Positions 22,821-63,957 of a stretch of 64,000 bases of DNA are shown piece after piece. Numbering within the stretch: position 1 is the first letter of the stretch; each line of letters opens with the position of its first letter. The translations under genes were made by a program, and so were the position numbers. Origin of the DNA: Escherichia phage ECD7; sequence record NC_041936.1. One strand, written 5' to 3'. The notes under the pieces are model-generated. The model worked only from the letters and a program-made list of their open reading frames with translations, was not told the DNA's origin and ran no database searches.

Positions 22821-22849
22821 ATTATAGGGGATCACCGATCCCTTGTCAA
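22821..22849 (-). promoter_or_regulatory. sigma70-like early promoter with palindromic spacer (PeSL-type)
   Basis: minus strand TTGACA - 17 nt GGGGATC..GATCCCC spacer - TATAAT. Confidence 0.6.
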
Positions 22850-22857
22850 CAACTTTT

Positions 22858-23376
22858 TTAGTTATTTTTTAATTGCTCATCTTGCAATAGGGCAATCACA
22901 TGCTGGCGATGTTCTTCCGATTGAGGCACACCGAAAAAGTTTGTTTTGTAGAAATACTCTAATCGGTCTTCTCGTGTGCTCTCTTCCATCATGATCGCGG
23001 GTAGTCCGAGATTTCGGAAACGTCGCTTTTCTGCTGGCGTAAAATCACTGTAATACAGCATATAATCATCATTACCAGCAATGCTAAACTCATCCTTCAT
23101 GAAAGAGAATATTGCGTTTAAACGCTGTTTACCGTCCACGATTTCGATTTCATAGCGAGAGCCATCATCAATCTTAGCCATTGCGATAGCACCAACCGGA
23201 AAATCATTAATCAGGTTTTCGATAAACATACGTTTGTTTTCTGTGTCCCATACCAAAGGACGCTGATAATCTGGGTTCATGTTGATATAGCCATCTTCTA
23301 ACCATGCTTCGTAAACAGAGATGACAAAGTTTTTAGTATTGGTATAGTAACGGCGTTTAGGCGTTAAACGGTTCAT
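22858..23376 (-). CDS. DUF262 (ParB-like / GmrSD N-terminal domain) protein
   Basis: DYQRPLVW and IVDGKQRL motifs typical of DUF262; start at internal Met with AGGAG RBS. Confidence 0.55.
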   Translation of the reverse strand: MNRLTPKRRYYTNTKNFVISVYEAWLEDGYINMNPDYQRPLVWDTENKRMFIENLINDFPVGAIAMAKIDDGSRYEIEIVDGKQRLNAIFSFMKDEFSIAGNDDYMLYYSDFTPAEKRRFRNLGLPAIMMEESTREDRLEYFYKTNFFGVPQSEEHRQHVIALLQDEQLKNN

Positions 23377-23377
23377 A

Positions 23378-23707
23378 TTATAGTCTCCTGAATGGATCAT
23401 CACGTAAATCAATATCTTTTAAGAACTCATCCCATGAATGGCGGATATTGTTCTTAATTCTCCAGATAAGCGCAGGGATTGAACGCTCTCCCATCTGGAA
23501 GTAAGGATCATATGATCCGTATGCCCAATATGCTACTACAATTCCACAATCAGCGCAATAGTATTCTATTTCACTTGCTGGCGACCAAAGTCCATCAATA
23601 TGATCAGTGATCTTGCTTTCGATGTTATGGCTATGACAATCAGGGCAACGGATGCAATGACCTTGTTTATCGTAATTTGACGTTAGAGAATACTTAAACA
23701 ATCTCAT
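23378..23707 (-). CDS. zinc-ribbon protein (109 aa)
   Basis: CxxC...CxxC (CIRCPDC ... CADCG); TAATG coupling to the methyltransferase-like gene. Confidence 0.5.
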   Translation of the reverse strand: MRLFKYSLTSNYDKQGHCIRCPDCHSHNIESKITDHIDGLWSPASEIEYYCADCGIVVAYWAYGSYDPYFQMGERSIPALIWRIKNNIRHSWDEFLKDIDLRDDPFRRL

Positions 23708-24423
23708 TATAGATCCTTATTGGCTTCAAATACTGCCTTTGCGAATCCTCGCGGCGTAAGTGACCTGATAGTCTTTGTTCTGGTTCCTTTCCCGCCTAGC
23801 TTAGAATGCTGTTTGCTGTACCCTTTATTAATCTGCAACGGTTTCTTTTCTGGCATTATAAAGCCTTGTCCGGTCCATAAGCAAGTCTTTTTCGGGTACA
23901 TATCACGGGCGGCAATATACTCAGGAAACGTAGGATGCTTATCATCTTCCGGCAAATAACCGCCATATTCCCACGGATGGAACATGTAATCAGGCTTACG
24001 CCACATACTAGAGATAACGCTTACAGGATTCTCTATCATATAGGGAACTCCTAGCCATTCACCCAAATAAGCGGTTATTTTAGCTGCCCGTACATCATGA
24101 ACTTGAATCAATGGTCCTTGTTCTCGTTTCTTTCGTTCAAAGTGTGCAGCGCCACTAACAGCTAAATTGGTGCACGGTGGGAATGCAAATATAATATCCG
24201 GTTTCCCCCATTCAAGGTCCATTGCTCTTTCCAGCCAGTTCAAATCAATCCAGGTGTTTACATAGGTAATGTTTGGATGTTCAAATCTGGTATTATACTT
24301 TTTGTATGTACCGTGGTCGGCGTCATCCGCATTAAAGCAGACTACCTTATGACCTGCTTTAGCCCATTCTAGCCCCATTATCCCCGATCCGTCAAAGTTG
24401 CAGAATATTAATTTTTGTTTCAT
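23707..24423 (-). CDS. cytosine-5 methyltransferase-like protein (238 aa)
   Basis: N-terminal FxGxG (FCNFDGSGIMG), catalytic-type FPPC, and ENP motif in the order of C5-MTase motifs I, IV, VI; short for a DNA MTase. Confidence 0.45.
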   Translation of the reverse strand: MKQKLIFCNFDGSGIMGLEWAKAGHKVVCFNADDADHGTYKKYNTRFEHPNITYVNTWIDLNWLERAMDLEWGKPDIIFAFPPCTNLAVSGAAHFERKKREQGPLIQVHDVRAAKITAYLGEWLGVPYMIENPVSVISSMWRKPDYMFHPWEYGGYLPEDDKHPTFPEYIAARDMYPKKTCLWTGQGFIMPEKKPLQINKGYSKQHSKLGGKGTRTKTIRSLTPRGFAKAVFEANKDL

Positions 24424-24665
24424 ATACGACCCTTTAACCCAGCACAGATTTTAGTCGGTTCTTTACCGTGCCACATTAAGTAAAGTCCGTTAGTGCGGCC
24501 TTGTTTTGTATATGATTCTTTTCTGATCTTCTTATAGTATCGTGCTTCCTCAGCCGATTGTTTAGAATGCCGATCATAAAGGAAGAGGAACAAAGGCCAA
24601 CCATTAGCGGCCTTAATGCAGTTATTAAGAAATTCCTTATTGCGTTTAATTAATTTTCTTTTCAC
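24420..24665 (-). CDS. small basic hypothetical protein (81 aa)
   Basis: ATGA-coupled within the operon. Confidence 0.45.
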   Translation of the reverse strand: MKRKLIKRNKEFLNNCIKAANGWPLFLFLYDRHSKQSAEEARYYKKIRKESYTKQGRTNGLYLMWHGKEPTKICAGLKGRI

Positions 24666-24913
24666 GCTGCCCCCATTGGTTTGATAGTAACAGAATCTAA
24701 AAGACCTTTGTTAGCCAGTTCGCGGCAAGTTTTCAGATCCGTAACTTCCCAGCCAGCCGCAATCAGGTTATCAATGAGGCTGTTAGCAACTTCCTCGCTC
24801 ATGAAAGAGCACTGTTTGCCGATGGTGTAGCGCACACGCTGTAATTTCAGTTTACGGAAGCCTTTAACGTTCAGGTCTTTAGCGATTTTCTTTGCGGTTT
24901 CGATGTTAGCCAT
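24662..24913 (-). CDS. small hypothetical protein (83 aa)
   Basis: first ORF behind the promoter at 24954-24982. Confidence 0.5.
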   Translation of the reverse strand: MANIETAKKIAKDLNVKGFRKLKLQRVRYTIGKQCSFMSEEVANSLIDNLIAAGWEVTDLKTCRELANKGLLDSVTIKPMGAA

Positions 24914-24953
24914 TGTTTGATTCTCCTAAGTGGTATCTCGTCTTGATGGTTGT

Positions 24954-24982
24954 ATTGTAGGGGAGTTATCCTCCCCTGTCAA
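24954..24982 (-). promoter_or_regulatory. sigma70-like early promoter with palindromic spacer
   Basis: minus TTGACA - 17 nt (GGGGAGGATAACTCCCC) - TACAAT. Confidence 0.55.
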
Positions 24983-24996
24983 CACTTTTTATAAAA

Positions 24997-25164
24997 TTAT
25001 TTGTTAATTTCTGGTGCGTTGCTCGGATAGTAACCTTCTTTAACGCCCAGGTATTTCGCAACCATCCCTACAATCTTCTGTGCTACTACAATGTCAAATT
25101 TCAGATAATCTTCGCCGTGGGTTTCAATGATATATGCTTCACATGCTGCTTTAGTCTCGAACAT
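24997..25164 (-). CDS. small protein (55 aa), paralog of 28255-28422
   Basis: MFETKAACEAYIIETHGEDYLKFDIVVAQKI...; 50/55 residues identical to the second copy. Confidence 0.5.
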   Translation of the reverse strand: MFETKAACEAYIIETHGEDYLKFDIVVAQKIVGMVAKYLGVKEGYYPSNAPEINK

Positions 25165-25197
25165 TTTGATTCTCCTATTTCGTTTCGGTATGGGTGT

Positions 25198-25227
25198 ATT
25201 ATAGGGGATCTCCCGATCCCCGTCAAC
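25198..25227 (-). promoter_or_regulatory. sigma70-like early promoter with palindromic spacer
   Basis: minus TTGACG - GGGATCGGGAGATCCCC - TATAAT. Confidence 0.6.
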
Positions 25228-25240
25228 AACTTTTTTAAAA

Positions 25241-25522
25241 TTATTCGTGATTAGTTTCGATGTTGTGCATTTTGCACCAGTTCAGCCAATCGCCCAGATC
25301 TTGATAGTTGATGCTTTTATCTGCTGCCATCGTTTTTGTCTTGATACCCATATGTGCGTTATGAGTAAGCATTTTTACAGTGAACTCAATTTTATCGCCT
25401 TTAGCTTTAACATCAACCAGTTTGGTCCACTGGCTACCAGCGCCGCGAATGTTCATGCCAACGATGTTTCCGATGTATGCTTCTTTGTTTTTCAGGATTT
25501 CGGTTGCTTTGATGAATTTCAT
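25241..25522 (-). CDS. small hypothetical protein (93 aa)
   Basis: ORF with its own promoter. Confidence 0.5.
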   Translation of the reverse strand: MKFIKATEILKNKEAYIGNIVGMNIRGAGSQWTKLVDVKAKGDKIEFTVKMLTHNAHMGIKTKTMAADKSINYQDLGDWLNWCKMHNIETNHE

Positions 25523-25555
25523 TTTTGATTCTCCAGTTCGTTTCGGTATGGGTGT

Positions 25556-25584
25556 ATTATGCTATGTTCTTACTTTGGTGTCAA
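25556..25584 (-). promoter_or_regulatory. sigma70-like early promoter (no palindrome)
   Basis: minus TTGACA - 17 nt - CATAAT. Confidence 0.5.
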
Positions 25585-25591
25585 CAACTTT

Positions 25592-25861
25592 TTAGATATT
25601 TTCAGAAATAAATTTTAAAACTTGACGTAAATGTTTCTCATCTTTGATAGTCGCCGGAAGTTCTTCTTTTACTTCCTGTGCAAGATAGATATTTCCGTTC
25701 CAAGTGAAAGATCCGTCTTCGTTTACGCGATAGCTGAACATCCACTCGCAATCATTTTCGATTTCATATACACACAGAAGGGTGTAATCGTTAAAGCTAT
25801 TGATTTCAAGGTCGAAGCCGTGACGTTTTGCAAAGTTGGTAGTGGTTTTAGTCAGTGCCAT
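25592..25861 (-). CDS. small hypothetical protein (89 aa)
   Basis: ORF with its own promoter. Confidence 0.5.
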   Translation of the reverse strand: MALTKTTTNFAKRHGFDLEINSFNDYTLLCVYEIENDCEWMFSYRVNEDGSFTWNGNIYLAQEVKEELPATIKDEKHLRQVLKFISENI

Positions 25862-25901
25862 TGTTTGATTCTCCTAAGTGGTATCTAGTTTCGATGGGTG
25901 T

Positions 25902-25930
25902 ATTATGCTATACACAGGATCTGGTGTCAA
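25902..25930 (-). promoter_or_regulatory. sigma70-like early promoter
   Basis: minus TTGACA - 17 nt - CATAAT. Confidence 0.5.
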
Positions 25931-25954
25931 TGCCTTTTTTAAAATTTTATGCAA

Positions 25955-25980
25955 TAAAAAAGCCGACGCTATGGTCGGCT
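25955..25980 (-). terminator. rho-independent terminator
   Basis: AGCCGAC/GTCGGCT hairpin with A-run on plus. Confidence 0.55.
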
Positions 25981-25987
25981 AATAAAA

Positions 25988-26346: not shown

Positions 26347-26634
26347 TTAAAACAGTCCTTCCTGTACACCGTAGTAGAGTTCGTCGCTGATAATTTCATT
26401 AATGCGACGGTGTGCATATTCCTGATTTGCGAAGTTGTCAGCAAGTTCTACTTTAGTTTCGCCGTCATGAGTCCATTTAGTGATAACTTTACCATCTGCA
26501 AATTTGAAGTTGAACTCTTTAGCTACTGCATCGCGTACCAGACGTGCAAACTTATTGTTGCGGATTGCATTGTCGGTTTCGTGTGCAGCGTGAGCAAATT
26601 TGTTAACTTTCAGAGTGATAGTGATGTATGCCAT
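26347..26634 (-). CDS. small hypothetical protein (95 aa), paralog of 29640-29951
   Basis: shared segment AKEFNxK. Confidence 0.5.
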   Translation of the reverse strand: MAYITITLKVNKFAHAAHETDNAIRNNKFARLVRDAVAKEFNFKFADGKVITKWTHDGETKVELADNFANQEYAHRRINEIISDELYYGVQEGLF

Positions 26635-26680
26635 AATTTGATTCTCCTAGTTAGAAAGTGTATCTCGTTTCGATGGGGAT

Positions 26681-26709
26681 ATTATGCTATACCCCCGATC
26701 TGGTGTCAA
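26681..26709 (-). promoter_or_regulatory. sigma70-like early promoter
   Basis: minus TTGACA - 17 nt - CATAAT. Confidence 0.5.
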
Positions 26710-26715
26710 CACTTT

Positions 26716-26994
26716 TTATAAAATAATTTTTTGATATTTTTCTATGATGTTCGTGTAAGTCACATCAACCGCTAGCACCGTTGCTTCGAATCCACCGTTT
26801 AGCCAATGGCTATGATCATGGTCGTGAAAGAAACCTAGTCCAGTACGAAGACCTTCTTTATATTCTGCGCGTACATTCAGTTTGTCGTCGATAAACAGAT
26901 AAAACCATGAATTTTTACTAGGATTGATGATACAACCTTTCAGATTAGGGAGAATATCACGACTAAGAATAAATTTATCACCTACTTTGAACAT
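26716..26994 (-). CDS. HxHW-family small protein, member 2
   Basis: WFYLFIDDKLNV...HDHDHSHWL...VLAVDV; start set at ATG with RBS (the track start is GTG). Confidence 0.55.
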   Translation of the reverse strand: MFKVGDKFILSRDILPNLKGCIINPSKNSWFYLFIDDKLNVRAEYKEGLRTGLGFFHDHDHSHWLNGGFEATVLAVDVTYTNIIEKYQKIIL

Positions 26995-28010: not shown

Positions 28011-28190
28011 TTAGAAAGGGATGGTCATTTCTTGAGCTTGTACATTCTCGTTAGGATTAAACTTCATCCAACCGATATTGTCTACCAGCATATACACATT
28101 TTTATCATATCCTACGTGAGTAGTCAACACTAAATGTGCTTTACCTTCAACGATGATTTCCATGTACTTCTGAACTTCGATAGCTTTCAT
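28011..28190 (-). CDS. small hypothetical protein (59 aa)
   Basis: ATG with GGAGA RBS; below the track cutoff. Confidence 0.35.
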   Translation of the reverse strand: MKAIEVQKYMEIIVEGKAHLVLTTHVGYDKNVYMLVDNIGWMKFNPNENVQAQEMTIPF

Positions 28191-28222
28191 TTTGATTCTC
28201 CGTTTGTTGTCTTGATGGGAGT

Positions 28223-28251
28223 ATCTTACTACTCCCTTTAATCATTGTCAA
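28223..28251 (-). promoter_or_regulatory. promoter-like element with conserved stem-loop (weak -10 TAAGAT)
   Basis: minus TTGACA - 17 nt - TAAGAT overlapping the GGGAGTAGTAAGATACTCCC palindrome; 30 bp identical to 63911-63940. Confidence 0.4.
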
Positions 28252-28254
28252 CGA

Positions 28255-28422
28255 TTATTTGTTAATTTCCGGTGCGTTGCTTGGATAGTAACCTTCTTTA
28301 ACACCCAGATATTTTGCAACCATTCCGGTGATCTTCTGTGCCACTACGATATCGAATTTCAGGTAGTCTTCACCGTGGGTTGCTACAATGTATGCTTCGC
28401 ATTCTGCTTTAGTCTGGAACAT
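28255..28422 (-). CDS. small protein (55 aa), paralog of 24997-25164
   Basis: MFQTKAECEAYIVATHGEDYLKFDIVVAQKI... Confidence 0.5.
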   Translation of the reverse strand: MFQTKAECEAYIVATHGEDYLKFDIVVAQKITGMVAKYLGVKEGYYPSNAPEINK

Positions 28423-28455
28423 TTTGATTCTCCTTTATCTCGTTGGTATGTGTGC

Positions 28456-28484
28456 ATTATAGGGGATCACCGATCCCCTGTCAA
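28456..28484 (-). promoter_or_regulatory. sigma70-like early promoter with palindromic spacer
   Basis: minus TTGACA - GGGGATCGGTGATCCCC - TATAAT. Confidence 0.6.
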
Positions 28485-28489
28485 CAACT

Positions 28490-28783
28490 TTATAATGCTT
28501 TATATGCGTATTTCATAAATTTGTCTGCCACTTCATTGGCATGTTCAGATTCTACGCCTGATTCGAGAACAATAGCTAGGTCGGTTTCGTCATTCCCGCC
28601 GTACCAATGATTTGATGTTCGATTTTTTTCAATTGGAAATTGGTCACTTTTATCTGTGCGACAAAATACATCTAAATGCTCGTCGATGTAAAAGATCCAA
28701 TCTTCATAAAGAATAACGGTATTAGCCAGATTTTTATTGCCTTCAACGAAAGGTTCGGCTACAAACAAATTAGTATGTTCCAT
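28490..28783 (-). CDS. HxHW-family small protein, member 5
   Basis: WIFYIDEHLDV...SNHWY...LAIVLE; start at internal Met with GAGGA RBS. Confidence 0.45.
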   Translation of the reverse strand: MEHTNLFVAEPFVEGNKNLANTVILYEDWIFYIDEHLDVFCRTDKSDQFPIEKNRTSNHWYGGNDETDLAIVLESGVESEHANEVADKFMKYAYKAL

Positions 28784-29386: not shown

Positions 29387-29566
29387 TTACATAACAATCA
29401 CGCCAGCCGTTGAAAGTTGATGTTTCAACTGAGCATTTTCTGCTACCGTCAAATCAATGATTTCTTGTGACGCTGCAATCATATATCCATTGGTGATATT
29501 GTTTTGCATCAGTTCAATGGTTTCTTCGTTGTAGCGGATTTTAGCGATGATTTCGTTGAAGTTCAT
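29387..29566 (-). CDS. small hypothetical protein (59 aa)
   Basis: ATG with GGAGAATC RBS-like context; below the track cutoff. Confidence 0.35.
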   Translation of the reverse strand: MNFNEIIAKIRYNEETIELMQNNITNGYMIAASQEIIDLTVAENAQLKHQLSTAGVIVM

Positions 29567-29600
29567 GATTGATTCTCCTAGTTCGTTTCGGTATGTGTGT

Positions 29601-29630
29601 AGTATAGGGGATCTCCCGATCCCCTGTCAA
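29601..29630 (-). promoter_or_regulatory. sigma70-like early promoter with palindromic spacer
   Basis: minus TTGACA - GGGGATCGGGAGATCCCC - TATACT. Confidence 0.55.
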
Positions 29631-29639
29631 CAACTTTTT

Positions 29640-29951
29640 TTAAAGTTTTTCCATGATAACGGTCATAATTACATCTTCTGCGCGAGCGGTCAGATTATCA
29701 GCGTCAGCATGTGGGCGGTTGGTTGTTACAGAGATAACACCGTTGCGCACTGGTTTGATATTGATATCAAGATGATCCGCGAAACGTTCGCCAGTTACAG
29801 AATGAATTTTGGTGTTAAATTCTTTTGCCAGTGCCTTGCGAACTTCACGAATCAGGGTAGCGTTTTTCAGTTGGTTCTCCGCGCTCATGGTCTTCTGGGT
29901 GTTCATGGTTCCGTCGAAGTCAATCATTGGCAGCGTTACGATGTATTTCAT
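29640..29951 (-). CDS. small hypothetical protein (103 aa), paralog of 26347-26634
   Basis: shared AKEFNTK segment. Confidence 0.5.
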   Translation of the reverse strand: MKYIVTLPMIDFDGTMNTQKTMSAENQLKNATLIREVRKALAKEFNTKIHSVTGERFADHLDINIKPVRNGVISVTTNRPHADADNLTARAEDVIMTVIMEKL

Positions 29952-29996
29952 TTTTGATTCTCCGTTTAAGAAAGTGTGTTTCGTTTTGATGTGTGT

Positions 29997-30025
29997 AGTA
30001 TAGGGGATACGTGATCCCCTGTCAA
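29997..30025 (-). promoter_or_regulatory. sigma70-like early promoter with palindromic spacer
   Basis: minus TTGACA - GGGGATCACGTATCCCC - TATACT. Confidence 0.55.
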
Positions 30026-30038
30026 CAACTTTTTTGAA

Positions 30039-30515
30039 TTATTTTTCTTGATGCTCGCGCTCGTACTTTTCGAAATAAAATTCTACTGGCTGGTCATGAA
30101 TTGACAGCAAGCCAAAGCGTTTAGCCGCTCGCAATCCCATATTGCGCTGAATGTACTTCTGGAAGTTCTCGCGTATACACTTACGCCAGTATTCTAAGCC
30201 CATACAGCTTTTATAAAGATTGCATTGTACACACGCCGGATTCATGTTATCAAGTATATCATGTTCCGGTTTATGCATTCCTACAACCTTATACTTCCAC
30301 GACCCATCATCATTACGGGCAATTCGTCCATTTTCATCATAGACTACCTTTGAGCGTCGCAATACTGGTTTGATATGGTCTGCGTGCCAGCGATCCCCTA
30401 GTTCCTCGCCACAATAGGCACAACGCCCACCGTATTTCATTTTCAGGATCTGGCGTTGCTCTTTCTTTGACAATTTTTTAGGTTTAGGGGCTTTCGCCCC
30501 TTCATTATCACACAT
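30039..30515 (-). CDS. HNH endonuclease (158 aa)
   Basis: CAYCGEELGDRWHADHIKP ... CVQCNLYK HNH zinc-finger nuclease motif; overlaps the 3' end of ligase by 8 nt. Confidence 0.65.
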   Translation of the reverse strand: MCDNEGAKAPKPKKLSKKEQRQILKMKYGGRCAYCGEELGDRWHADHIKPVLRRSKVVYDENGRIARNDDGSWKYKVVGMHKPEHDILDNMNPACVQCNLYKSCMGLEYWRKCIRENFQKYIQRNMGLRAAKRFGLLSIHDQPVEFYFEKYEREHQEK

Positions 30516-33066: not shown

Positions 33067-33684
33067 TTATTTATATTTCGCGACCTTTGGATTTCGCCGC
33101 AGACCGGAATGTATTTGCGCTATACAACAATAAGAAACATTAAACATATCAGCTATAATTTGCTTCTTAACTTTTCCTTTAAGCCGCATTATTTCTTCGA
33201 CTTGCGCATTTGTCAGTTTTGCCCGTGAGTGGTTTTCACCGACATTGTTATTGAGTCCAGTTCTAAATGAATGTCTCATATTTTCTAGTAAGGTTACTAT
33301 TTCTAGATTCCACACATAATTGCAGGTTTTTACACCATTGATGTGATTAACCTCAAGTCCGGTAACGTCTCCTAGAAATGCATTTGCTACAAGTCGATGT
33401 ATCTTTTCGGCTTTAACTGAGATTTTACCATTGTCTTTTTGTTTTGACAATGTTGAATAATAATATCCATATCGGTCTAAAATTGGTTTTATTATTTTAC
33501 CAGCCCGTTTTTGTTTTACGAGCTTAATATTACCGGGAGAAACTTCTCTATAAAATTCGATACTTCGGTCAATAGATCTCAATCTACCATAATTAGAGAT
33601 TTCATACCACGGATAACCTACAGCTTGTCTCCATTCTTCCGGCGCTGGTAATACGATATTATCATCTTTTGTTTCCATTGTCAA
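33067..33684 (-). CDS. HNH homing endonuclease (NUMOD4 + HNH_3 type)
   Basis: WYEISNYGRLRS and EVNHINGVK...NLE motifs; freestanding between 31 and cd. Confidence 0.65.
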   Translation of the reverse strand: MTMETKDDNIVLPAPEEWRQAVGYPWYEISNYGRLRSIDRSIEFYREVSPGNIKLVKQKRAGKIIKPILDRYGYYYSTLSKQKDNGKISVKAEKIHRLVANAFLGDVTGLEVNHINGVKTCNYVWNLEIVTLLENMRHSFRTGLNNNVGENHSRAKLTNAQVEEIMRLKGKVKKQIIADMFNVSYCCIAQIHSGLRRNPKVAKYK

Positions 33685-38036: not shown

Positions 38037-38435
38037 TTAACTTTCCAGAATATCGCGAGCTTCGTTACGCTCCTTGATGATTTTCAGGACAAATTCCAGT
38101 TTTTCTTTGTTCAGTGTTCCGTTTTCCATTGCTTCTTTGACGGTAAACACTCCGCCACCTTGCCCGTATACAGTGACAGTGATTTCACCTAACATCGTGG
38201 TATGAAAACCGCCAATTTTCGGTGATTCGAACGAAACAATCACCTCGCGGACAGTATTACCGTCGTTGATTTCTGAGAGGGTAATGTCGTTTTTGTAGGC
38301 GGTTGCCTTAACCATACGGATCAGCATAGTCTGATCTGGGGAGATGGTCATTTTGTCCATTGCATGTTGCAATGCAGCGTAACCGAAAACTTTAACGAAG
38401 TCCAGAACGTCTTTGCGAGTTTGAAATTTAATCAT
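38037..38435 (-). CDS. hypothetical protein (132 aa)
   Basis: ORF behind a palindromic promoter-like element. Confidence 0.5.
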   Translation of the reverse strand: MIKFQTRKDVLDFVKVFGYAALQHAMDKMTISPDQTMLIRMVKATAYKNDITLSEINDGNTVREVIVSFESPKIGGFHTTMLGEITVTVYGQGGGVFTVKEAMENGTLNKEKLEFVLKIIKERNEARDILES

Positions 38436-38476
38436 CTTGATACTCCTTAGTAAGTTAGTTTCGTTTCGATGGGGGT

Positions 38477-38505
38477 ATATTACTACCCCCGTTCCATGCT
38501 GTCAA
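38477..38505 (-). promoter_or_regulatory. promoter-like element with stem-loop
   Basis: minus TTGACA then GGGGGTAGTAATATACCCCC palindrome; -10 approximate. Confidence 0.4.
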
Positions 38506-38724
38506 CTACTTTTTAATGACAAGTTCGAATTTTGCTACCTTGCGTCCTCGTTTATTGAAAGCAACCCACGGACGGGTTTCAATGTAGAACAATTCTTCAC
38601 CAATAATGAATACTGGCTGATTGTAAAGGCGACCCATCAGGTCACGCTGGCGAATGGTAGTAGATTCGTATACTTCGCCTACTACAAAGTGTTTGCTGAT
38701 AGAGTCGGTGCAGATAAATTTCAT
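38506..38724 (-). CDS. small hypothetical protein (72 aa)
   Basis: ORF behind the promoter at 38758-38786. Confidence 0.45.
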   Translation of the reverse strand: MKFICTDSISKHFVVGEVYESTTIRQRDLMGRLYNQPVFIIGEELFYIETRPWVAFNKRGRKVAKFELVIKK

Positions 38725-38757
38725 TTTGATTCTCCTTTGTTTCGTTTCGATGGGAGT

Positions 38758-38786
38758 ATCTTACTACCCCCGTTATTCAGTGTCAA
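38758..38786 (-). promoter_or_regulatory. promoter-like element with conserved stem-loop
   Basis: minus TTGACA - 17 nt - TAAGAT within a GGGGGTAGTAAGATACTCCC-type palindrome. Confidence 0.4.
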
Positions 38787-38794
38787 CTACTTTT

Positions 38795-39013
38795 TTACTT
38801 GTTGTATTCATTCCACCATTGGGTGAGCTTATCAATTATTTTTGTGTTTCTATCCAACTTATCCCACCGTTTTCGAGGGTTTATCAACCGGAATAGGTAA
38901 GGTGTACTTGTTAAGTGGACTCGGTCAATATAGTGATTGATGTACTGTTTTTCGATTCTAAGTTTCATCTTTTTACGATGAAAATATGCAATAACTTGTT
39001 CTTCTGTTTCCAT
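38795..39013 (-). CDS. small hypothetical protein (72 aa)
   Basis: ORF behind the promoter at 39038-39066. Confidence 0.45.
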   Translation of the reverse strand: METEEQVIAYFHRKKMKLRIEKQYINHYIDRVHLTSTPYLFRLINPRKRWDKLDRNTKIIDKLTQWWNEYNK

Positions 39014-39037
39014 ATGTTCCTCCGTTTCGATGTGCGT

Positions 39038-39066
39038 ATTATGCTATGGCAAGATCCGATTGTCAA
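39038..39066 (-). promoter_or_regulatory. sigma70-like early promoter
   Basis: minus TTGACA - 17 nt - CATAAT. Confidence 0.5.
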
Positions 39067-39075
39067 CGCCCAATA

Positions 39076-39102
39076 ACAAAAAAGTCGCCACTATGGGCGA
39101 CT
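39076..39102 (-). terminator. rho-independent terminator
   Basis: AGTCGCC/GGCGACT hairpin with A-run on plus. Confidence 0.55.
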
Positions 39103-39113
39103 TTGAACAAACA

Positions 39114-40930: not shown

Positions 40931-41103
40931 TAGTTCACCTTCTGCTTTTCAATGCAATACAGATTCATAAAGCGTTTATTGTCTTCGCGTATAATCTCGC
41001 GAGCTTTAACGCAATCCTGCTTTGTTGCAAATTCAATGCTTGACATATTTCCGTAATTATACATTGAATTGCTTATTGCAATCAATAACCATACAGTAGC
41101 CAT
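40930..41103 (-). CDS. small protein MATVWLL... (57 aa), tandem paralog
   Basis: see paralog; hydrophobic N-terminus. Confidence 0.4.
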   Translation of the reverse strand: MATVWLLIAISNSMYNYGNMSSIEFATKQDCVKAREIIREDNKRFMNLYCIEKQKVN

Positions 41104-41270
41104 TATCCGACAACCTCAAAACATTTATCATCAGGAAGAATAGCCCATTCTACGCCGTATTCATCCTTAACGTAGTAGCAAGTCCCATCATGTCGAGCAT
41201 CATATTCATCACCGACAACAAAGCTATCAGCTAGTTCAAAATCTACAGCAACACATTTTAATTTGGTCAT
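41103..41270 (-). CDS. small hypothetical protein (55 aa)
   Basis: start at internal Met downstream of the promoter at 41303-41330. Confidence 0.4.
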   Translation of the reverse strand: MTKLKCVAVDFELADSFVVGDEYDARHDGTCYYVKDEYGVEWAILPDDKCFEVVG

Positions 41271-41302
41271 AATAAAATCCTCACTTGTTTTTGATGGTTG
41301 TA

Positions 41303-41330
41303 TTATAGCGGGGATTTCTCCCCGCGTCAA
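41303..41330 (-). promoter_or_regulatory. sigma70-like promoter with palindromic spacer
   Basis: minus TTGACG - GCGGGGAGAAATCCCCGC - TATAAT. Confidence 0.55.
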
Positions 41331-41338
41331 CACTTATT

Positions 41339-43582
41339 TTACAGCTTGCAAGATGAGCACTCGCTAGCGTCTTCCGTACCATCAGCACCATCACGCACGT
41401 TAGCGTAATACAGTGTCTTGAGGCCGTAATATTGAGCAAACAACATATCATCTAATACATCAGCAATATCGACTTTACCAGTCTTATAAGTGCTTGGATC
41501 GTAGGATGTGTTGGAACTAATCGCCTGATCTACAAACTTCTGCATGATCGCTGCCAGTGTCAGATAAGGCTTGTTACCTTTCTTGATCAGTGTCCAAAGC
41601 AGGTCAATAACATCAGCATTATTCTCTACGTTCGGAATAACCTGATTAAATTGCCCTTCTTTCGATCCTTTAACCGATACAATCCCGCGAGGCGGTTCAA
41701 TACCGTTTGTGCTGTTAGACACCTGAGAGGACGACTCACAAGGCATCAGCGCCGAAAGCGTACTGTTACGAATGCCATATTTTTTCAGGTCTTCGCGAAG
41801 TTCTTCCCAATCCATCTCATACACAGGATCAACCAGTTCATCTACTGTCTTTTTGTACCAGTCGATAGGCAGTTCACCGCGACCATAACGTGTTTCGTGC
41901 ATCAGTTCGCAAGCACCCTTCTCTTTAGCCAGTTGTACACTAGCCTTAATCAGAGCATATTGCAAGCGTTCAAACGTTTTATGCGTAAACTCGTTAGCGT
42001 CTTCATATGTGAAGAAATTATCCGCCAGATATGATGCAAAGTTAGTCACACCAACACCCAGAGAGCGACGTTTTTTGGCTGTCAGAGCTTGTTCTACAGG
42101 ATAATCCTGGTAATCTAACAGGTTGTCAAGTGCACGCACCATAACCATAGCAATGCGTTCTACTTCTTCCATATTTTCGATATCAAAGTTTCCTAAAACA
42201 TATGCTGCCAAAGTACATAGGCTGATCTCTGAATCATCACGACCCATCGGTTTTGTTGGCAGAGCAATTTCACAACACAGGTTAGATTGTTTAATCGGTG
42301 CTACATTACGAATAAACGCCCCGTGATTGTTCATGTTGTCTGTGAACGCTGGATAGATTCGACCAGTGTTAAAACGTTCAATTGCCACCGCTAAAAACAG
42401 GTCTTCGGCTTTAACACGAGTTTTACGAACACTCGGATCTTTTTCCAGTTTTTCGTAAAGCTGGCGGAAACCTTCCTCATCTCGGAAGTACAGATCCCAC
42501 AACAAGCCACCTGCAACATCTGGACTAAACAGAGTAATGTAATCCCGTTTGAGGAATCGCTCTACCATCAGGTTATTAATCTGTACGCCGTAATCAAGAT
42601 GACGAATGCGGTTATCTTCTACCCCTTTGTTGTTCTTCAACACAATCAGACTTTCAAACTCTAAATGCCACATTGGGTAATAGAGAGTCGCCGCCCCGCC
42701 ACGAATACCGCCTTGTGAACATGACTTAACGGCAGTCTGAAAATGTTTCCAGAATGGGATAACGCCAGTATGACGAACTTCACCATGCCCGATCTTAGAT
42801 CCTTCCGCACGAATCATGCCAGCGTTGATACCGATGCCAGCACGCTTGCTAATATACTTGATGATTGCATTTGCGGTTTCATTAATACCCTGCAATGAAT
42901 CATCAGATTCGATCACCACACACGAACTAAATTGGCGTGTTGGGGTACGCACACCAGCCATAATCGGAGTAGGCAGAGAAATTTGCTTATTAGCAACAGC
43001 ATTATAAAAATCAATCACATGTTCAAGTCGATTTTCTGTCTCTTCTTGATGTAAGCACATACCGATCAGCATATACGCAAATTGCGGTGTTTCAATGATT
43101 TTCTTAGTGCTGCGATCCTGAACAAGATATTTCTCTTTTAACTGCATCGCACCAGCATAGGTCATTTTAAAATCAAGTTTATGGTCGATGAATTTCTCCA
43201 GATATTCCACTTCTTCACGGGAATACTTTTGCAGAATTTCGCGATCATATTTTCCGGTTGCAATATTACGCTCAATATGGCTATAAAAATCAATAGGTTG
43301 GAATTGACCGTATACTGATTTACGAAGCGCGAACATTGCAAGGTTACTTGCTACATATTGATAATCAGGTGTTTCTACAGTAATGTTATCTGCGGCGACC
43401 TTAATCAATACTTTCTGGATATCATTGGTAGACATACCTTCTGTCAGAAGTGGTTCAACCATATCAAATAATTCATATGGGTCAACGTTATGACCTTCGG
43501 CTGCCGCTTCCAGAATTTTCATTACTTTTTCTTTTTCAAACGGAACAGTCAGACCGGAAGACTTAACAACATTTTTAATCAT
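41339..43582 (-). CDS. nrdA: ribonucleotide reductase large subunit
   Basis: 747 aa; ATP-cone N-terminus; catalytic region NLCCEIALP; C-terminal CSSCKL-type redox tail. Confidence 0.9.
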   Translation of the reverse strand: MIKNVVKSSGLTVPFEKEKVMKILEAAAEGHNVDPYELFDMVEPLLTEGMSTNDIQKVLIKVAADNITVETPDYQYVASNLAMFALRKSVYGQFQPIDFYSHIERNIATGKYDREILQKYSREEVEYLEKFIDHKLDFKMTYAGAMQLKEKYLVQDRSTKKIIETPQFAYMLIGMCLHQEETENRLEHVIDFYNAVANKQISLPTPIMAGVRTPTRQFSSCVVIESDDSLQGINETANAIIKYISKRAGIGINAGMIRAEGSKIGHGEVRHTGVIPFWKHFQTAVKSCSQGGIRGGAATLYYPMWHLEFESLIVLKNNKGVEDNRIRHLDYGVQINNLMVERFLKRDYITLFSPDVAGGLLWDLYFRDEEGFRQLYEKLEKDPSVRKTRVKAEDLFLAVAIERFNTGRIYPAFTDNMNNHGAFIRNVAPIKQSNLCCEIALPTKPMGRDDSEISLCTLAAYVLGNFDIENMEEVERIAMVMVRALDNLLDYQDYPVEQALTAKKRRSLGVGVTNFASYLADNFFTYEDANEFTHKTFERLQYALIKASVQLAKEKGACELMHETRYGRGELPIDWYKKTVDELVDPVYEMDWEELREDLKKYGIRNSTLSALMPCESSSQVSNSTNGIEPPRGIVSVKGSKEGQFNQVIPNVENNADVIDLLWTLIKKGNKPYLTLAAIMQKFVDQAISSNTSYDPSTYKTGKVDIADVLDDMLFAQYYGLKTLYYANVRDGADGTEDASECSSCKL

Positions 43583-45812: not shown

Positions 45813-46142
45813 TCAAATCAGTTTGAAATAGTTGTCTTGCACGTTTTCTTCTGTGATTGCCGTTTTAAATTCTTGACCGTTATCCGGTGTTATGACATAG
45901 CGGTCTGAATAATCACGCCATCTTTTCAGCATACTGACGCCAACATTAACACCATTTTCCCAGAAACGGAAGGTAATCATTTTTGTTTCATATCGGTAAT
46001 CACTTTGAATCAAGCTACCATCACCGCGACGTGATTCATAAACCGTAATACATTCACGGTTAGCGGCTTTAAGGCATTCTTCAATAGTGCCACACGAGAC
46101 AATTTCTGTTGAGTCATCTACGATTTGTTCTACAGTCCACAT
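45813..46142 (-). CDS. hypothetical protein (109 aa)
   Basis: ORF behind the promoter at 46174-46201. Confidence 0.45.
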   Translation of the reverse strand: MWTVEQIVDDSTEIVSCGTIEECLKAANRECITVYESRRGDGSLIQSDYRYETKMITFRFWENGVNVGVSMLKRWRDYSDRYVITPDNGQEFKTAITEENVQDNYFKLI

Positions 46143-46173
46143 AATATAATTCTCTCTTCGTTTCGATGTTTGT

Positions 46174-46201
46174 ATTATACATCATCTGTATTCGGTGTCA
46201 A
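46174..46201 (-). promoter_or_regulatory. sigma70-like promoter
   Basis: minus TTGACA - 16 nt - TATAAT. Confidence 0.5.
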
Positions 46202-46527
46202 CCTTTTTGTTCCATGAAAAGCGGTGCTGTTTCTTCTTTCAGTTTAATAACTAGCGCGGAAACTTCATCAAGAAAATCTTTTTCCATATGAGCAAGCATT
46301 GATTTAGAATCTTTGATGACTTTCAAAGAATATTCACTTAGATTTCCTTTTCCTAACAATAATGCAGGATACACACTATGTGGGATCTCGATTTCATGAT
46401 ATTCGCTCATAGTATAATATTTGTGAATTTTTAAATCTATATTTCTTCGTTGTACGTCTACATCAGCAATGACATACAGAAGTTCAATTTTATCACTTTT
46501 CTGGGAAAGGGTAGCATTCAAAAACAT
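46198..46527 (-). CDS. hypothetical protein (109 aa)
   Basis: ORF behind the promoter at 46557-46584. Confidence 0.45.
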   Translation of the reverse strand: MFLNATLSQKSDKIELLYVIADVDVQRRNIDLKIHKYYTMSEYHEIEIPHSVYPALLLGKGNLSEYSLKVIKDSKSMLAHMEKDFLDEVSALVIKLKEETAPLFMEQKG

Positions 46528-46556
46528 TGTTAATCCTCCGTTGTTTCGATGCTTGT

Positions 46557-46584
46557 ATTATACAACCTCATCTCAGCATGTCAA
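46557..46584 (-). promoter_or_regulatory. sigma70-like promoter
   Basis: minus TTGACA - 16 nt - TATAAT. Confidence 0.5.
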
Positions 46585-46610
46585 CACCTTTTTCATAAAA
46601 TTTTAGGCAA

Positions 46611-46636
46611 TAAAAAAGCCTCCCCGAAGGGAGGCT
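46611..46636 (-). terminator. rho-independent terminator downstream of gene 32
   Basis: AGCCTCCC-TTCG-GGGAGGCT hairpin followed by a U-run on minus. Confidence 0.7.
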
Positions 46637-46646
46637 GTAAAATTCA

Positions 46647-47593: not shown

Positions 47594-47635
47594 AATTATA
47601 CCTCTTTTATACATTAACTATTAATTTGCTAGATT

Positions 47636-61898: not shown

Positions 61899-61901
61899 TC
61901 C

Positions 61902-62246
61902 TTACAGATGAAAACCTGTTACGATCACCGCATCGATCTTACCGCTAGGAATAAACGGTTCGCCCTCTTTTATTTCAACTTTGAATTGATGCCATTTCGC
62001 TAATACTTCTTCCGGTACACCCAGCGATTCGGCGTCTGCTTTAGTTTCATCCATAATCCAACTAGGCTGCATGAGAGCATAGTTTACATAGTCCATTTCT
62101 GGGGTCATGTCATCAATGTTAATATATTTGCAGTTGACGCGTTTCAGAATTTCAAATTCTTTATTGTCAACCTGTACCATGTATAATTCAGTAGTTTCTG
62201 GAATCAGTTCCCACACAATCAGTACATTTTTCATAGTTCGCCTCAC
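61902..62246 (-). CDS. hypothetical protein (114 aa)
   Basis: ORF in the coupled minus-strand array. Confidence 0.45.
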   Translation of the reverse strand: MRRTMKNVLIVWELIPETTELYMVQVDNKEFEILKRVNCKYINIDDMTPEMDYVNYALMQPSWIMDETKADAESLGVPEEVLAKWHQFKVEIKEGEPFIPSGKIDAVIVTGFHL

Positions 62247-62611
62247 TTAACAAACATTTTCTTTAATGCTTTCAGGATCGTTGCTTCCGGCGCTTCTTCC
62301 GGTGGAGGAAGCAATTCTACCACTTCCTCTTCCAACTCGATATAGTCTACCAGATATTCTACATAGAATGCAAGTGCTTCCATGAAATTAAATGCTACAT
62401 CCGATTCACCACAAGCGCCTACATGCATTGTATAAACATCACTGCGATCAAGTTTGTGGATGCTTCCCAGATAGTTTCGGTTATACCAGACTTCCCACAC
62501 TTTCAGCTTTCCGGTTTTGGTTGCTGTTTTATAATCGGTTTCGTAATGATGCAATTGACGTTGCAAATCATTGATAATAACACATTTTTCGTAATTGTTT
62601 TGAATTTCCAT
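62243..62611 (-). CDS. hypothetical protein (122 aa)
   Basis: ORF in the coupled minus-strand array. Confidence 0.45.
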   Translation of the reverse strand: MEIQNNYEKCVIINDLQRQLHHYETDYKTATKTGKLKVWEVWYNRNYLGSIHKLDRSDVYTMHVGACGESDVAFNFMEALAFYVEYLVDYIELEEEVVELLPPPEEAPEATILKALKKMFVK

Positions 62612-62621
62612 GATGTAATCC

Positions 62622-62813
62622 TCACTTATCGTTAAGAAGTTCTAAAACTTTCTGTCGTACTTTGTCAATATTAGTTGATTCAAAAACTGTACGGTATCCC
62701 CAGCTTTGACCGTATGAGCGGTTGCAATCTCCATATCCCCATTGTTCAACCTGGTAGTATTCAAGGAATGGATGCTGCCGAACTATGATACCATCGCGAT
62801 TAAAAATTACCAT
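62622..62813 (-). CDS. small hypothetical protein (63 aa)
   Basis: ORF in the minus-strand array. Confidence 0.4.
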   Translation of the reverse strand: MVIFNRDGIIVRQHPFLEYYQVEQWGYGDCNRSYGQSWGYRTVFESTNIDKVRQKVLELLNDK

Positions 62814-62836
62814 AATATAATCCTCACGTCAACAAC

Positions 62837-63124
62837 TTATTTTCGGTTGTGGTCACGATATGTTTTAAAATATCCCTCGTACCACGGTAAAATATCTGGA
62901 TTTTTACCACTATACAGACTTTTAACCATCATGTCAATAAGGCCATCTGGTGTTTGATAGTTTCCAGCTTTTATAAGCTCTCTGATTAAAATCTCTCTGT
63001 ATATGTCTTTCGGATCTTCGTAATCAACTTGTATTGTGGTTGTGGTCTCATTCAATTTTGTTTCTGGAGTATCTCGCATTGCATCCCACCAATCTTTTGT
63101 GACCTTAATGTTATTGAATTGCAT
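62837..63124 (-). CDS. hypothetical protein (95 aa)
   Basis: ORF in the minus-strand array. Confidence 0.45.
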   Translation of the reverse strand: MQFNNIKVTKDWWDAMRDTPETKLNETTTTIQVDYEDPKDIYREILIRELIKAGNYQTPDGLIDMMVKSLYSGKNPDILPWYEGYFKTYRDHNRK

Positions 63125-63135
63125 AATTTAACCTC

Positions 63136-63894
63136 TTACTTGCAAACGTATTGATCTACATCAATTGCGCCACCGAATGTGGGATGACGTTTTTCAAATC
63201 GAATAGTTCCGTCGTTTGGTTCGAAAACGGAGTATTCATATAGATCTTTCTTGCCAACATTCTTATAAAACCCACCTTTAGTCATAACGGTTTCTTGTAC
63301 GTTTGCTTTGTGTACGTTGTATTCGTCAATGTATACAAAATCAACCATCTTCCCATTTTTAATGGTTACTTTAAGATCTCCTGGCTGGTTTCCATATTTT
63401 GCATACAGTGGAGCCTCTTTAATTTTTGTGGAAATTCCATCTTTCATACTCCACTCATAACGAACGGTGCATTGATAGGTAAAAGTTTCGACCTTCGGTT
63501 CTTCTACCACTTTTGCTTCCTGTTTCGGTTGTTCTTCTTCAACCTTCGCAGAAGTCTCTGAATCTCTCTCTGACTCGGTTTCTTCTTTAGGTAATACATT
63601 CATCAAGTTTTGGATTTGAGCGTTATATACAACCTCCAGTGGCTGAATCTGCCCGATATTGATCATTGTATCACGAACAGTTTTATTCCAGTTGCGTTGC
63701 TCTTGTTTAAGAGACGGATCAATCTTAACAGCCTTAACATATACCTCATGAAGTTTCGAATCCAGTGCGGAGATTGACTCATTAGCACAAATAAACTTCT
63801 CTGATTTGGTAGTGGCTTTAGCGCAATCAAAGGACGCAGCATTAGCACCGAAAGCAGTAGCGGAAAGAACGATAGCAGCGATAATGTTTTTCAT
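63136..63894 (-). CDS. secreted DUF1311 (LprI-like) domain protein
   Basis: signal peptide MKNIIAAIVLSATAFGANA; FDCAKATTKSEKFIC...LDSKLHEVY resembles the DUF1311 N-terminal signature. Confidence 0.5.
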   Translation of the reverse strand: MKNIIAAIVLSATAFGANAASFDCAKATTKSEKFICANESISALDSKLHEVYVKAVKIDPSLKQEQRNWNKTVRDTMINIGQIQPLEVVYNAQIQNLMNVLPKEETESERDSETSAKVEEEQPKQEAKVVEEPKVETFTYQCTVRYEWSMKDGISTKIKEAPLYAKYGNQPGDLKVTIKNGKMVDFVYIDEYNVHKANVQETVMTKGGFYKNVGKKDLYEYSVFEPNDGTIRFEKRHPTFGGAIDVDQYVCK

Positions 63895-63928
63895 AATATA
63901 TTCCTCAATGTTTTGTCTTGATGGGAGT

Positions 63929-63957
63929 ATCTTACTACTCCCTTAATCCGGTGTCAA
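63929..63957 (-). promoter_or_regulatory. promoter-like element with conserved stem-loop (TTGACA / TAAGAT)
   Basis: 30 bp identical to the element at 28206-28236. Confidence 0.4.

Follow-up and report, generated by a model that had tools for sequence, protein, structure and literature searches.

Why should a phage repeat the same early promoter, with a hairpin built into it, ahead of one small gene after another, and do these repeats mark the places at which such genes are inserted, deleted or replaced? The question is raised by a 64,000-nucleotide (nt) stretch of the genome of Escherichia phage ECD7 (NC_041936.1), which we call the window. The phage is a Krischvirus (RB49-like), syntenic with RB49, phi1 and JSE. 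We found that the repeated elements are very probably promoter early stem-loop (PeSL) elements, that is, near-consensus early promoters with stem-loops that serve as homology units for accessory-gene exchange. The PeSL is an already known feature and our result is confirmatory; the hairpin-class counts, the compensatory changes with G.U intermediates, the absence of U-tracts and a junction-level indel statistic are additions that sharpen the known picture and leave it unchanged.

A family of 17 promoter elements on one strand

Exact matches to TTGACA-N15-19-TATAAT numbered 10 in the window, against 0.16 expected from shuffles. An nhmmer profile, seeded with 12 window copies and iterated until convergence, gave exactly 17 matches (E = 3e-16 to 1e-7), all on the minus strand; the next match had E = 0.055. 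A preliminary description of the window had claimed at least 17 copies on the minus strand, and the converged profile settles the number. We named each element by the start coordinate of its -35 box: 63957, 46584, 46201, 41330, 39066, 38786, 38505, 30025, 29630, 28484, 28251, 26709, 25930, 25584, 25226, 24982 and 22849. The ten copies located in the preliminary description had been given by the low-coordinate end of the -10 hexamer, nine of them exactly; 41303 should be 41302.

The conserved unit is ~90-105 bp long, from an A-tract through the ATG, and not 40-60 bp as first estimated. It is ordered as A-tract, -35 box, spacer, -10 box, C-rich discriminator, leader, ribosome-binding site (RBS) and start codon, for example AAAAAAGTTG-TTGACA-aGGGATCggtGATCCCc-TATAAT-gcacacataccgaaacgaa...ATG on the minus strand at 22849-22784. 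An A-tract of the AAAAAG(T)TG type lies upstream in all 17 copies. The -35 box, earlier given as TTGACA throughout, has that sequence in 15 copies and reads TTGACG in the other two; the spacer is 17 nt long in 14 copies, 16 nt in two and 18 nt in one, exactly the range proposed. We observed TATAAT, TATACT, TACAAT, TAAGAT, TAATAT and CATAAT as -10 boxes, with four to six of the six positions matching in all 17 copies. The conserved leader begins AUCGAAACGAA... and takes the form CATCGAAACGAA or CATACCGAAACGAA, followed by a GGAGAATCAAAATG-type RBS. The promoters are close to consensus, and they are oriented and spaced properly with respect to the start codons. A small open reading frame (ORF) with an RBS had been expected 30-40 nt downstream; a GGAG or GAGG RBS does precede the ATG in 15/17 copies, whereas the ATG lies 24-46 nt past the -10 box and the ORFs range from 55 to 252 aa. 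All but one of the 17 downstream proteins are without a Pfam match.

Exact runs of 17-33 bp in the spacer, discriminator and leader are common to copies whose downstream genes are unrelated. The longest exact match, 33 bp, is between 22849 and 28484, and an exact 32-mer is common to 28251 and 63957, 35.7 kb apart, which bears out the 30-bp identity at a distance of 35 kb first described. Only one of the 136 pairs of downstream proteins is paralogous. Duplication of a gene together with its promoter was therefore rejected as the source of the repeats, the 25226/28484 pair being the only one with paralogous downstream genes. This pair belongs to a dispersed 238-bp duplication (24996-25233 versus 28254-28491, 84% identical) of a 55-aa gene and its PeSL; the two gene copies have 91% amino-acid identity and are the sole case in which gene and element were duplicated as a unit. 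We also observed ATGGCTAACATCGAAA at both 22784 and 24913 on the minus strand: here the similarity between elements extends into the first codons of otherwise unrelated ORFs, and crossovers or conversions could therefore reach a few codons into coding sequence.

The RBSs of 13 of the 17 elements contain GGAG, and ten read GGAGAATCAAA(A)ATG (e.g., 28422-28440 and 25164-25182). GGAG in early-gene RBSs is the target of the T4 RegB endoribonuclease. A divergent regB gene has been reported in RB49 (PMC3014915), and PeSL-driven mRNAs may therefore be RegB substrates.

We then applied the profile to nine relatives and found 15-19 copies in each (19 in RB49 and 18 in phi1), on the same strand and in the syntenic region. 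Together with the window this gave 172 elements, all on the same strand, with 102 distinct core sequences; the annotators of GEC-3S had marked promoters at the same positions. A BLAST search with one element gave 57 records, all of them RB49-like (Escherichia, Shigella and Enterobacteria), with matches at 4-8 places in each, and the exact pattern of the spacer-hairpin class described below occurred in IMG/VR on one contig only, five times. Rfam covariance models, applied at gathering score to the whole window, gave no match.

The elements correspond to PeSLs of RB49 and phi1

The Krischviruses that match the window region at 95-98% identity include JEP8, PHB13, KFS-EC, RB49, phi1, JSE and GEC-3S. 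Its minus strand at 19-50.6 kb is collinear with RB49 ORF182-247 and carries alt, the ORF185-211 cluster of unknown-function genes, ligase gene 30, cd, pseT, rnlA, denA, nrdB, nrdA, td, frd, genes 32, 59 and 33, and rnh; the tail-fibre genes 34-37 lie on the plus strand at 50.7-60.3 kb. The element cluster at 22.5-30.1 kb is the counterpart of RB49 ORF185-211. Arbiol et al. (2010, Genome Biol Evol 2:140; PMC2839356) named the ORF182-247-type region hyperplastic region 3 and defined PeSLs there. In their report, PeSLs of RB49 and phi1 are composites of a sigma-70-like early promoter with a stem-loop, number 51-52 per genome and fall into five positional subclasses, the commonest stem-loop positions being between the boxes or over the -10 box.

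By sequence comparison, the window elements belong to this published family, and several of them are identical or nearly so to its members at orthologous sites. Element 30025 is identical to RB49 PeSL211/210 at 101/101 positions; the stem-loop of PeSL211/210 terminated transcription, with a reduction of lacZ comparable to that by rrnB T1 (PMC2839356). Element 28484 is near-identical to its ortholog PeSL206/205, for which strong promoter activity of about 13,000 Miller units was measured in the same study. Near-identity to PeSL192/191 was found as well, and the junction at 25226 corresponds to the published phi1-type ORF193/191 junction lacking ORF192; RB49 has ORF192 between two PeSLs at this position. 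The early-promoter features that Nolan et al. noted in RB49 also recur in the window (T/C at -12, a C-rich -3 to -1 and G at -33) and agree with the 5'-end mapping by Desplats (2002). A literature search found no paper on Krischvirus transcriptomics. The PeSL identity suggested in the preliminary description was thus upheld by the shared genus and syntenic region, the profile matches in nine relatives and the complete identity to PeSL211/210; promoter boxes, stem-loop positions, intergenic sites in the hyperplastic region, homology and association with indels are all found in the window family.

Hairpins within the spacer or around the -10 box

A core hairpin was present in 13/17 copies. In seven (41330, 30025, 29630, 28484, 25226, 24982 and 22849) a G/C-rich inverted repeat lies wholly inside the spacer. 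In six (63957, 38786, 38505, 28251, 26709 and 25930) the 5' arm lies in the spacer, and the loop and 3' arm extend over the -10 hexamer and discriminator; this -10-enclosing class comprises the GGGAGTA..TACTCCC type and a CATAAT variant. In 39066 and 46584 the core hairpin is missing, and a conventional terminator hairpin with a T-run lies upstream of the -35 box; 25584 and 46201 have no hairpin of any class. The preliminary description, in which the spacer is usually an inverted repeat, therefore applies to 7/17 copies; the GGGAGTA type that it included (6/17) straddles the -10 box.

The clear hairpins have folding energies of -9 to -19.4 kcal/mol, and the 17 copies had an average RNAfold z-score of -1.8 against dinucleotide shuffles (individual values +1.4 to -4.9). 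Between -35 and +1, 12/17 elements contain a hairpin of 6 bp or more that includes three or more G-C pairs; the same holds for 0/45 other TTGAC-N-TAnnnT sites of the window and for 5.3% of random 37-nt windows. Each hairpin ends no more than 6 nt past the -10 hexamer. This puts it upstream of the predicted start site, so that only polymerases coming from the preceding gene would transcribe it; in most copies, 0-14 nt separate the stop codon of that gene from the -35 box. No U-tract follows the core hairpins: in the 8-nt tails we counted 1-3 U for the spacer class (UAUAAUAC or AUACUACA) and 1 U for the -10-enclosing class (AUCGAAAC or AUCAAGAC). Only the hairpins upstream of the -35 box at 25961-25980, ~46617-46636 and 39081-39104 fit a canonical intrinsic terminator (at least 5 U in 8 nt).

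The spacer stems at 22828-22842, 25204-25221, 28461-28479, 29606-29625 and 30002-30020 each contain one or two GATC (Dam) sites. The 17 promoter cores hold 12 GATC against ~2.4 expected from the window frequency, an excess for which shared ancestry accounts in part.

We next considered whether the stems are conserved as structures. In the TAAGAT/TAATAT class, one stem pair occurs as G-C (8), A-U (6) and G-U (2), and 96% of cells are paired, versus 49-78% in slid registers. In the CATAAT class, both sides have changed at three pairs (e.g., GGGGATAT/ATATCCCC versus GGGTGTAT/ATACACCC), a G.U intermediate is present in window copy 26709, and the covariation score is above those of all 500 shuffles and all slid registers. 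No single structural alignment was usable for the spacer-class hairpins because the register of the stem is not constant among them (spacers of 17 or 18 nt; the 41330 type), so variation was read directly from the element sequences: GGGGAT/ATCCCC alternates with GGGGAG/CTCCCC, GGGGGTC (G.U) variants occur, and disruptive changes are few, that in 22849 among them. The hairpins upstream of the predicted start site have thus been kept by some compensatory change. The palindromes, whose lack of structural conservation would have counted against the preliminary description, do persist as structures across copies.

The hairpin loop reads either GGT or its reverse complement ACC, and it differs at orthologous sites between RB49 and phi1 (28461-28479 in the window; ~11450-11470 in phi1). 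We considered an in-place inversion of the loop as evidence of cruciform extrusion and rejected it for PeSL206/205: between RB49 and phi1 a changed loop goes together with changes in the upstream flank and in the -10 box, and the sequence farther downstream is the same in both, as a crossover inside the element would leave it. In phage G2248, at ~12950-13030, a PeSL is partially duplicated in tandem, with the 3' arm, -10 box and leader repeated (...TATCCCCTATACTACACACATCAAAACGAAGGGGATCACGTATCCCCTATACTACACACATCAAAACGAAAC), which suggests slippage or unequal exchange within the element.

PeSLs bound about half of the gene-content differences

To compare gene content, we chained BLAST alignments of the window against the nine relatives over 19-50.65 kb and obtained 16 distinct insertion, deletion or replacement events. 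At least one endpoint fell inside a PeSL footprint in 8/16 events, although footprints make up 5.2% of the bases (p = 6e-5). These events involve the ORF186 unit (absent from the window), ORF192 / JSE-199, ORF191, ORF195/196, ORF210, ORF211, ORF226 and a cassette between 46201 and 46584. The last holds a 109-aa ORF in the window, no ORF in JSE and PHB13, and a 1.2-1.6 kb endonuclease gene in RB49, phi1, JEP8, JK32 and GEC-3S. In six of the eight PeSL events, the flanking alignments overlap by 33-106 bp, so that indel junctions carry homology of PeSL length. Overlaps of this kind are the signature of exchange between two homologous repeats, and by these alignments PeSLs bound about half of the gene-content differences. 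The proposal that the cassettes delimit the units of shuffling accordingly holds for one half of the indels and not for the other. In agreement with exchange at PeSLs, inverse polymerase chain reaction (PCR) on RB49 and phi1 yielded mini-circles with crossovers inside PeSLs (Arbiol et al. 2010; PMC2839356).

The elements are less pervasive than "almost every small early gene", as was first thought: a PeSL heads 16/61 minus-strand genes at 19-50.6 kb and 10/23 in the densest stretch, 22.5-30.1 kb. The unit headed by each PeSL contains 1-5 genes. Gene gaps with a PeSL are 55-126 nt long, and most junctions without one overlap or are shorter than 20 nt.

A gene for an HNH/NUMOD4 homing endonuclease (33067-33678, minus strand, 203 aa), an example of a window-specific insertion, lies between genes 31 and 31.1, and its boundaries are not PeSLs. 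It is absent from 8/9 relatives; PHB13 has a gene at that spot.

A proposed mechanism and its alternatives

We propose that the near-consensus sigma-70 early promoter (UP-like A-tract, TTGACA, 17-nt spacer and TATAAT-like box) would be read by unmodified host RNA polymerase right after infection, as judged from its consensus and from the activity shown for the 28484 ortholog; by extension, all 17 copies would fire early. The hairpin, present in read-through RNA from the upstream gene, would attenuate or terminate transcription or cap the 3' end, and the leader with its GGAG RBS would open a transcription unit that comprises 1-5 small genes without a known function. The ~100-bp units all point the same way and resemble one another at 60-95%, which would allow homologous recombination by the phage to cross over between PeSLs and so delete, insert or replace the genes between them; the likely agent is the phage homologous recombination machinery, which needs <50 bp of homology. 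Extending attenuation of read-through to all hairpins, and termination to the spacer-type hairpins other than the 30025 ortholog, is our inference. For the -10-enclosing hairpins, without a U-tract, termination is doubtful and is the weakest link of the mechanism; their effect may instead be to stabilise 3' ends, to make the polymerase pause or to modulate the promoter that they overlap. PeSLs are one of few concrete mechanisms proposed for the swapping of accessory genes in T4-type phages without breaking regulation, and recognising them helps to annotate transcription units and to predict where gene content varies.

Several observations weigh against this account. The eight events outside PeSLs have overlaps of 3-17 bp (short direct repeats) or are homing-endonuclease insertions. 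Under a gene-junction null, in which 16/60 junctions have a PeSL, the 8/16 events give a modest p = 0.04, and under a two-junction null the enrichment is lost (p = 0.48); our claim of association is therefore moderate and rests mainly on overlap homology. Four of the 17 family members are without a core hairpin. A consensus terminator scan called ordinary terminators nearby and no PeSL core hairpin, so we do not claim terminator function from sequence, and, with only 1-3 U in the tails, the case for termination in general depends on a single published reporter assay. The covariation events are few in independent number and the copies are related by descent, which makes covariation a moderate support, short of proof. 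Some of these points would follow if the elements were ordinary early promoters only, alike through convergence on the sigma-70 consensus and a few duplications, with incidental palindromes and an indel link that stems from shared intergenic siting: the weak junction-level enrichment, the copies without a core hairpin and the 25226/28484 pair, with its paralogous 55-aa genes inside a 238-bp duplication, all agree with this. However, the exact runs of 17-33 bp lie at positions without a known consensus role and before unrelated genes, the control promoter-like sites have no such hairpins (0/45 versus 12/17), pairing is preserved by compensatory changes, and overlaps are 33-106 bp at PeSL-bounded indels versus 3-17 bp elsewhere. 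Taken with the mini-circles that inverse PCR recovered (Arbiol et al. 2010), these observations make mere promoters a very unlikely explanation.

The GGGG...CCCC palindromes might alternatively act as DNA, as targets of a repressor, a recombinase or a structure-specific nuclease, or as cruciforms, which would make PeSLs site-specific, integron-like cassettes. Both loop orientations (GGT and ACC) are present in the family, and Arbiol et al. raise a possible recombination protein that binds the stem-loop (PMC2839356). Yet the stems vary by class (GGGGATC, GGGGAG and GCGGGGA in the spacer; GGGAGTA, GGGGGTA and GGGTGTAT over the -10 box), and stems that differ in sequence and position favour selection for base pairing over selection for a sequence that a protein recognises, as do compensatory changes with G.U intermediates. 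The GGT/ACC difference at PeSL206/205 reflects exchange of half an element with its linked flanks. Crossovers fall in dispersed zones (the AT-rich region, the segment from the -10 box to the RBS and others), with 33-106 bp of homology, as for homologous exchange. The variable length and position of junction overlaps, together with the statement by Arbiol et al. that no integrase was found in RB49 or phi1 (PMC2839356), seem to argue against integron-like site-specific mobility, and we hold a DNA-level target to be very unlikely. We view as improbable, too, a broader version in which the stem-loops are structure-specific DNA or RNA signals (targets of phage proteins, or places where a cruciform or hairpin induces template switching) that direct excision and insertion of cassettes, the -10-enclosing class having a separate role in promoter control. 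A different role at the RNA level is less remote, though still unlikely: the hairpins, especially those of the -10-enclosing class, could be RNA elements other than terminators that protect against 3' exonucleases, cause pausing or tune the open complex through the non-template strand. With a single U in 8 nt in the -10-enclosing tails AUCGAAAC/AUCAAGAC and 1-3 U in the spacer class, a terminator scan that misses PeSL hairpins and finds conventional terminators in the same region, and G.U intermediates that indicate an RNA-level constraint, this reading has points in its favour; against it, the PeSL211/210 stem-loop, identical to that of 30025, cut lacZ like rrnB T1 in the assay of Arbiol et al. 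(PMC2839356). Overall, we favour PeSLs as early promoters with stem-loops that supply homology for gene exchange.

Individual elements and their surroundings

All elements and the ORFs that they head are on the minus strand. Among those with a spacer hairpin, 22849 (22782..22879; TTGACA-17-TATAAT) heads a 70-aa ORF at 22572-22784; its hairpin at 22828-22842, GGGATCggtGATCCC, is weakened by G>A in the first stem position, and at this site relatives have two PeSLs flanking an extra ORF186 unit. The ORF187 ortholog (22858-23400, minus strand, 180 aa) encodes a GmrSD_N (DUF262) domain (Pfam E = 5.5e-20), a domain typical of type IV restriction enzymes, and adjoins a putative DNA methyltransferase gene, 23707-24423, itself without a Pfam match. 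Element 24982 (24911..25012; TTGACA-17-TACAAT) precedes an 83-aa ORF at 24662-24913 and has the hairpin AGGGGAGgataaCTCCCCT at 24959-24977 (-19.4 kcal/mol). The paralogous 55-aa ORFs 24997-25164 and 28255-28422 are headed by 25226 (25162..25256; TTGACG-17-TATAAT; hairpin GGGGATCgggaGATCCCC, 25204-25221) and 28484 (28420..28514; TTGACA-17-TATAAT; hairpin AGGGGATCggtGATCCCCT, 28461-28479), respectively. The 59-aa ORF 29387-29566 follows 29630 (29564..29660; TTGACA-18-TATACT), with AGGGGATCgggaGATCCCCT at 29606-29625, and the 103-aa ORF 29640-29951 follows 30025 (29949..30055; TTGACA-17-TATACT), with AGGGGATcacgtATCCCCT at 30002-30020. Downstream of nrdA, 41330 (41268..41360; TTGACG-17-TATAAT) heads a 55-aa ORF at 41103-41270 and contains GCGGGGAgaaaTCCCCGC at 41308-41325 (-19 kcal/mol).

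In the -10-enclosing class, 25930 (25859..25985; TTGACA-17-CATAAT; 89-aa ORF 25592-25861) has a weak hairpin, GTGTATagcataATACAC, over the -10 box at 25898-25915 and the canonical terminator hairpin upstream at 25961-25980; relatives carry an extra ORF195/196 unit here. Element 26709 (26632..26739; TTGACA-17-CATAAT) heads a 95-aa ORF at 26347-26634, with GGGGGTATagcataATATCCCC around the -10 box at 26675-26696. The hairpin GGGAGTAgtaagaTACTCCC encloses the -10 box of both 28251 (28188..28281; TTGACA-17-TAAGAT; hairpin 28217-28236; 59-aa ORF 28011-28190) and 63957 (63892..63987; TTGACA-17-TAAGAT; hairpin 63923-63942), the latter heading a 252-aa ORF with an LprI domain at 63136-63894. Around the -10 box of 38505 (38433..38535; TTGACA-17-TAATAT; 132-aa ORF 38037-38435) lies GGGGGTAgtaataTACCCCC at 38471-38490, and relatives have an extra ORF226 unit at this site; 38786 (38722..38816; TTGACA-17-TAAGAT; 72-aa ORF 38506-38724) has GGGGGTAgtaagaTACTCCC with one G.U pair at 38752-38771.

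The remaining four elements have no core hairpin. Element 25584 (25520..25614; TTGACA-17-CATAAT) heads a 93-aa ORF at 25241-25522. Upstream of the -35 box of 39066 (39011..39110; TTGACA-17-CATAAT; 72-aa ORF 38795-39013), a 9-bp terminator-type hairpin, AAAGTCGCC..GGCGACTTT, with a T-run lies at 39081-39104. The two boundaries of the replaceable cassette 46198-46527 are 46201 (46140..46231; TTGACA-16-TATAAT), which precedes a 109-aa ORF at 45813-46142, and 46584 (46525..46640; TTGACA-16-TATAAT), which heads the 109-aa ORF 46198-46527 of the cassette itself; upstream of the -35 box of 46584, at ~46617-46636 and just after gene 32, is the canonical terminator AGCCTCCCttcgGGGAGGCT with a T-run. 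Gene 32 (46647-47614, minus strand) encodes the single-stranded DNA-binding protein. Its allele is of the G2248/JK32 type but has a 1-nt deletion near 46858-46865, where it reads GTAAG-CTGG versus GTAAGCCTGG. The frameshift leads to a stop after 245 aa, so that the acidic C-terminal domain (~70 aa) is lost; the truncation is either real or the product of an error in sequencing or assembly.

Outside the sequence family, we noted a PeSL-like composite (profile E = 4.9) at 20374..20453 on the minus strand, between alt and a second ADP-ribosyltransferase gene. It has TTGACT-17-TATACT and a 13-bp hairpin, AAACGGGGACTAG..CTAGCCCCGTTT, around the -10 box, followed by TTTTCTGTT. Two further consensus early promoters, TTGACA-16-TATAAT, lie outside the family at 6922-6990 and 6350-6410 (minus strand); the promoter at 6949 comes directly after a terminator hairpin, GCCATCCTTCGGGGTGGC, with a T-run and resembles a PeSL of the upstream-stem-loop subclass. 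Under the broader definition of Arbiol et al., the window would contain ~19-20 PeSLs.

Comparison with known systems

The closest counterparts are the PeSLs of RB49 and phi1, from which the window elements show no essential difference. They occur in the same genus, on the same strand and in the same region (hyperplastic region 3, ORF185-211, and the ORF225-228, 233/234 and 239-241 junctions). The architecture is the same, with an AT-rich tract containing the upstream stop, the boxes, a GGGG..CCCC stem-loop between the boxes or over the -10 box, the RBS and the ATG, and so is the link to the presence or absence of small genes whose function is unknown. The set of cassettes is particular to the window: it is without the ORF186, ORF192, ORF195/196, ORF211 and ORF226 units, has a 109-aa ORF in place of the endonuclease ORF240 of RB49 and phi1, and has a weakened stem at 22849. 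PeSL-like elements known from T4/PST and KVP40/nt-1 (Comeau, Arbiol & Krisch 2014; PMC4122927) and from the T-even internal-protein loci likewise combine an early promoter with a stem-loop flanking variable genes and were proposed as recombination linkers. Their authors consider them analogs and not homologs; they have the T4-type early promoter consensus and weaker, AT-rich stems.

Intrinsic terminators resemble PeSLs in having a G/C-rich hairpin of 6-8 bp placed 5-30 nt past the stop codon of the upstream gene; PeSL hairpins differ in having no U-tract, the tail being the -10 box (UAUAAU) or the leader (AUCGAAAC). Integron cassettes, a comparison made by Arbiol et al., share with PeSLs the small promoter-associated units, the circles and the recurring insertion sequence, whereas for PeSLs no integrase or attC-type site is known and the junctions resemble products of homologous recombination. 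The morons of lambdoid phages (Hendrix et al. 2000) are likewise single accessory genes with their own promoter and terminator between conserved genes, and the linker sequences of Botstein and Campbell are likewise conserved stretches that guide modular exchange. In morons, however, the regulatory sequences occur without repetition and are not regarded as a means of mobility, whereas in the window the repeated promoter-hairpin unit would itself supply the homology.

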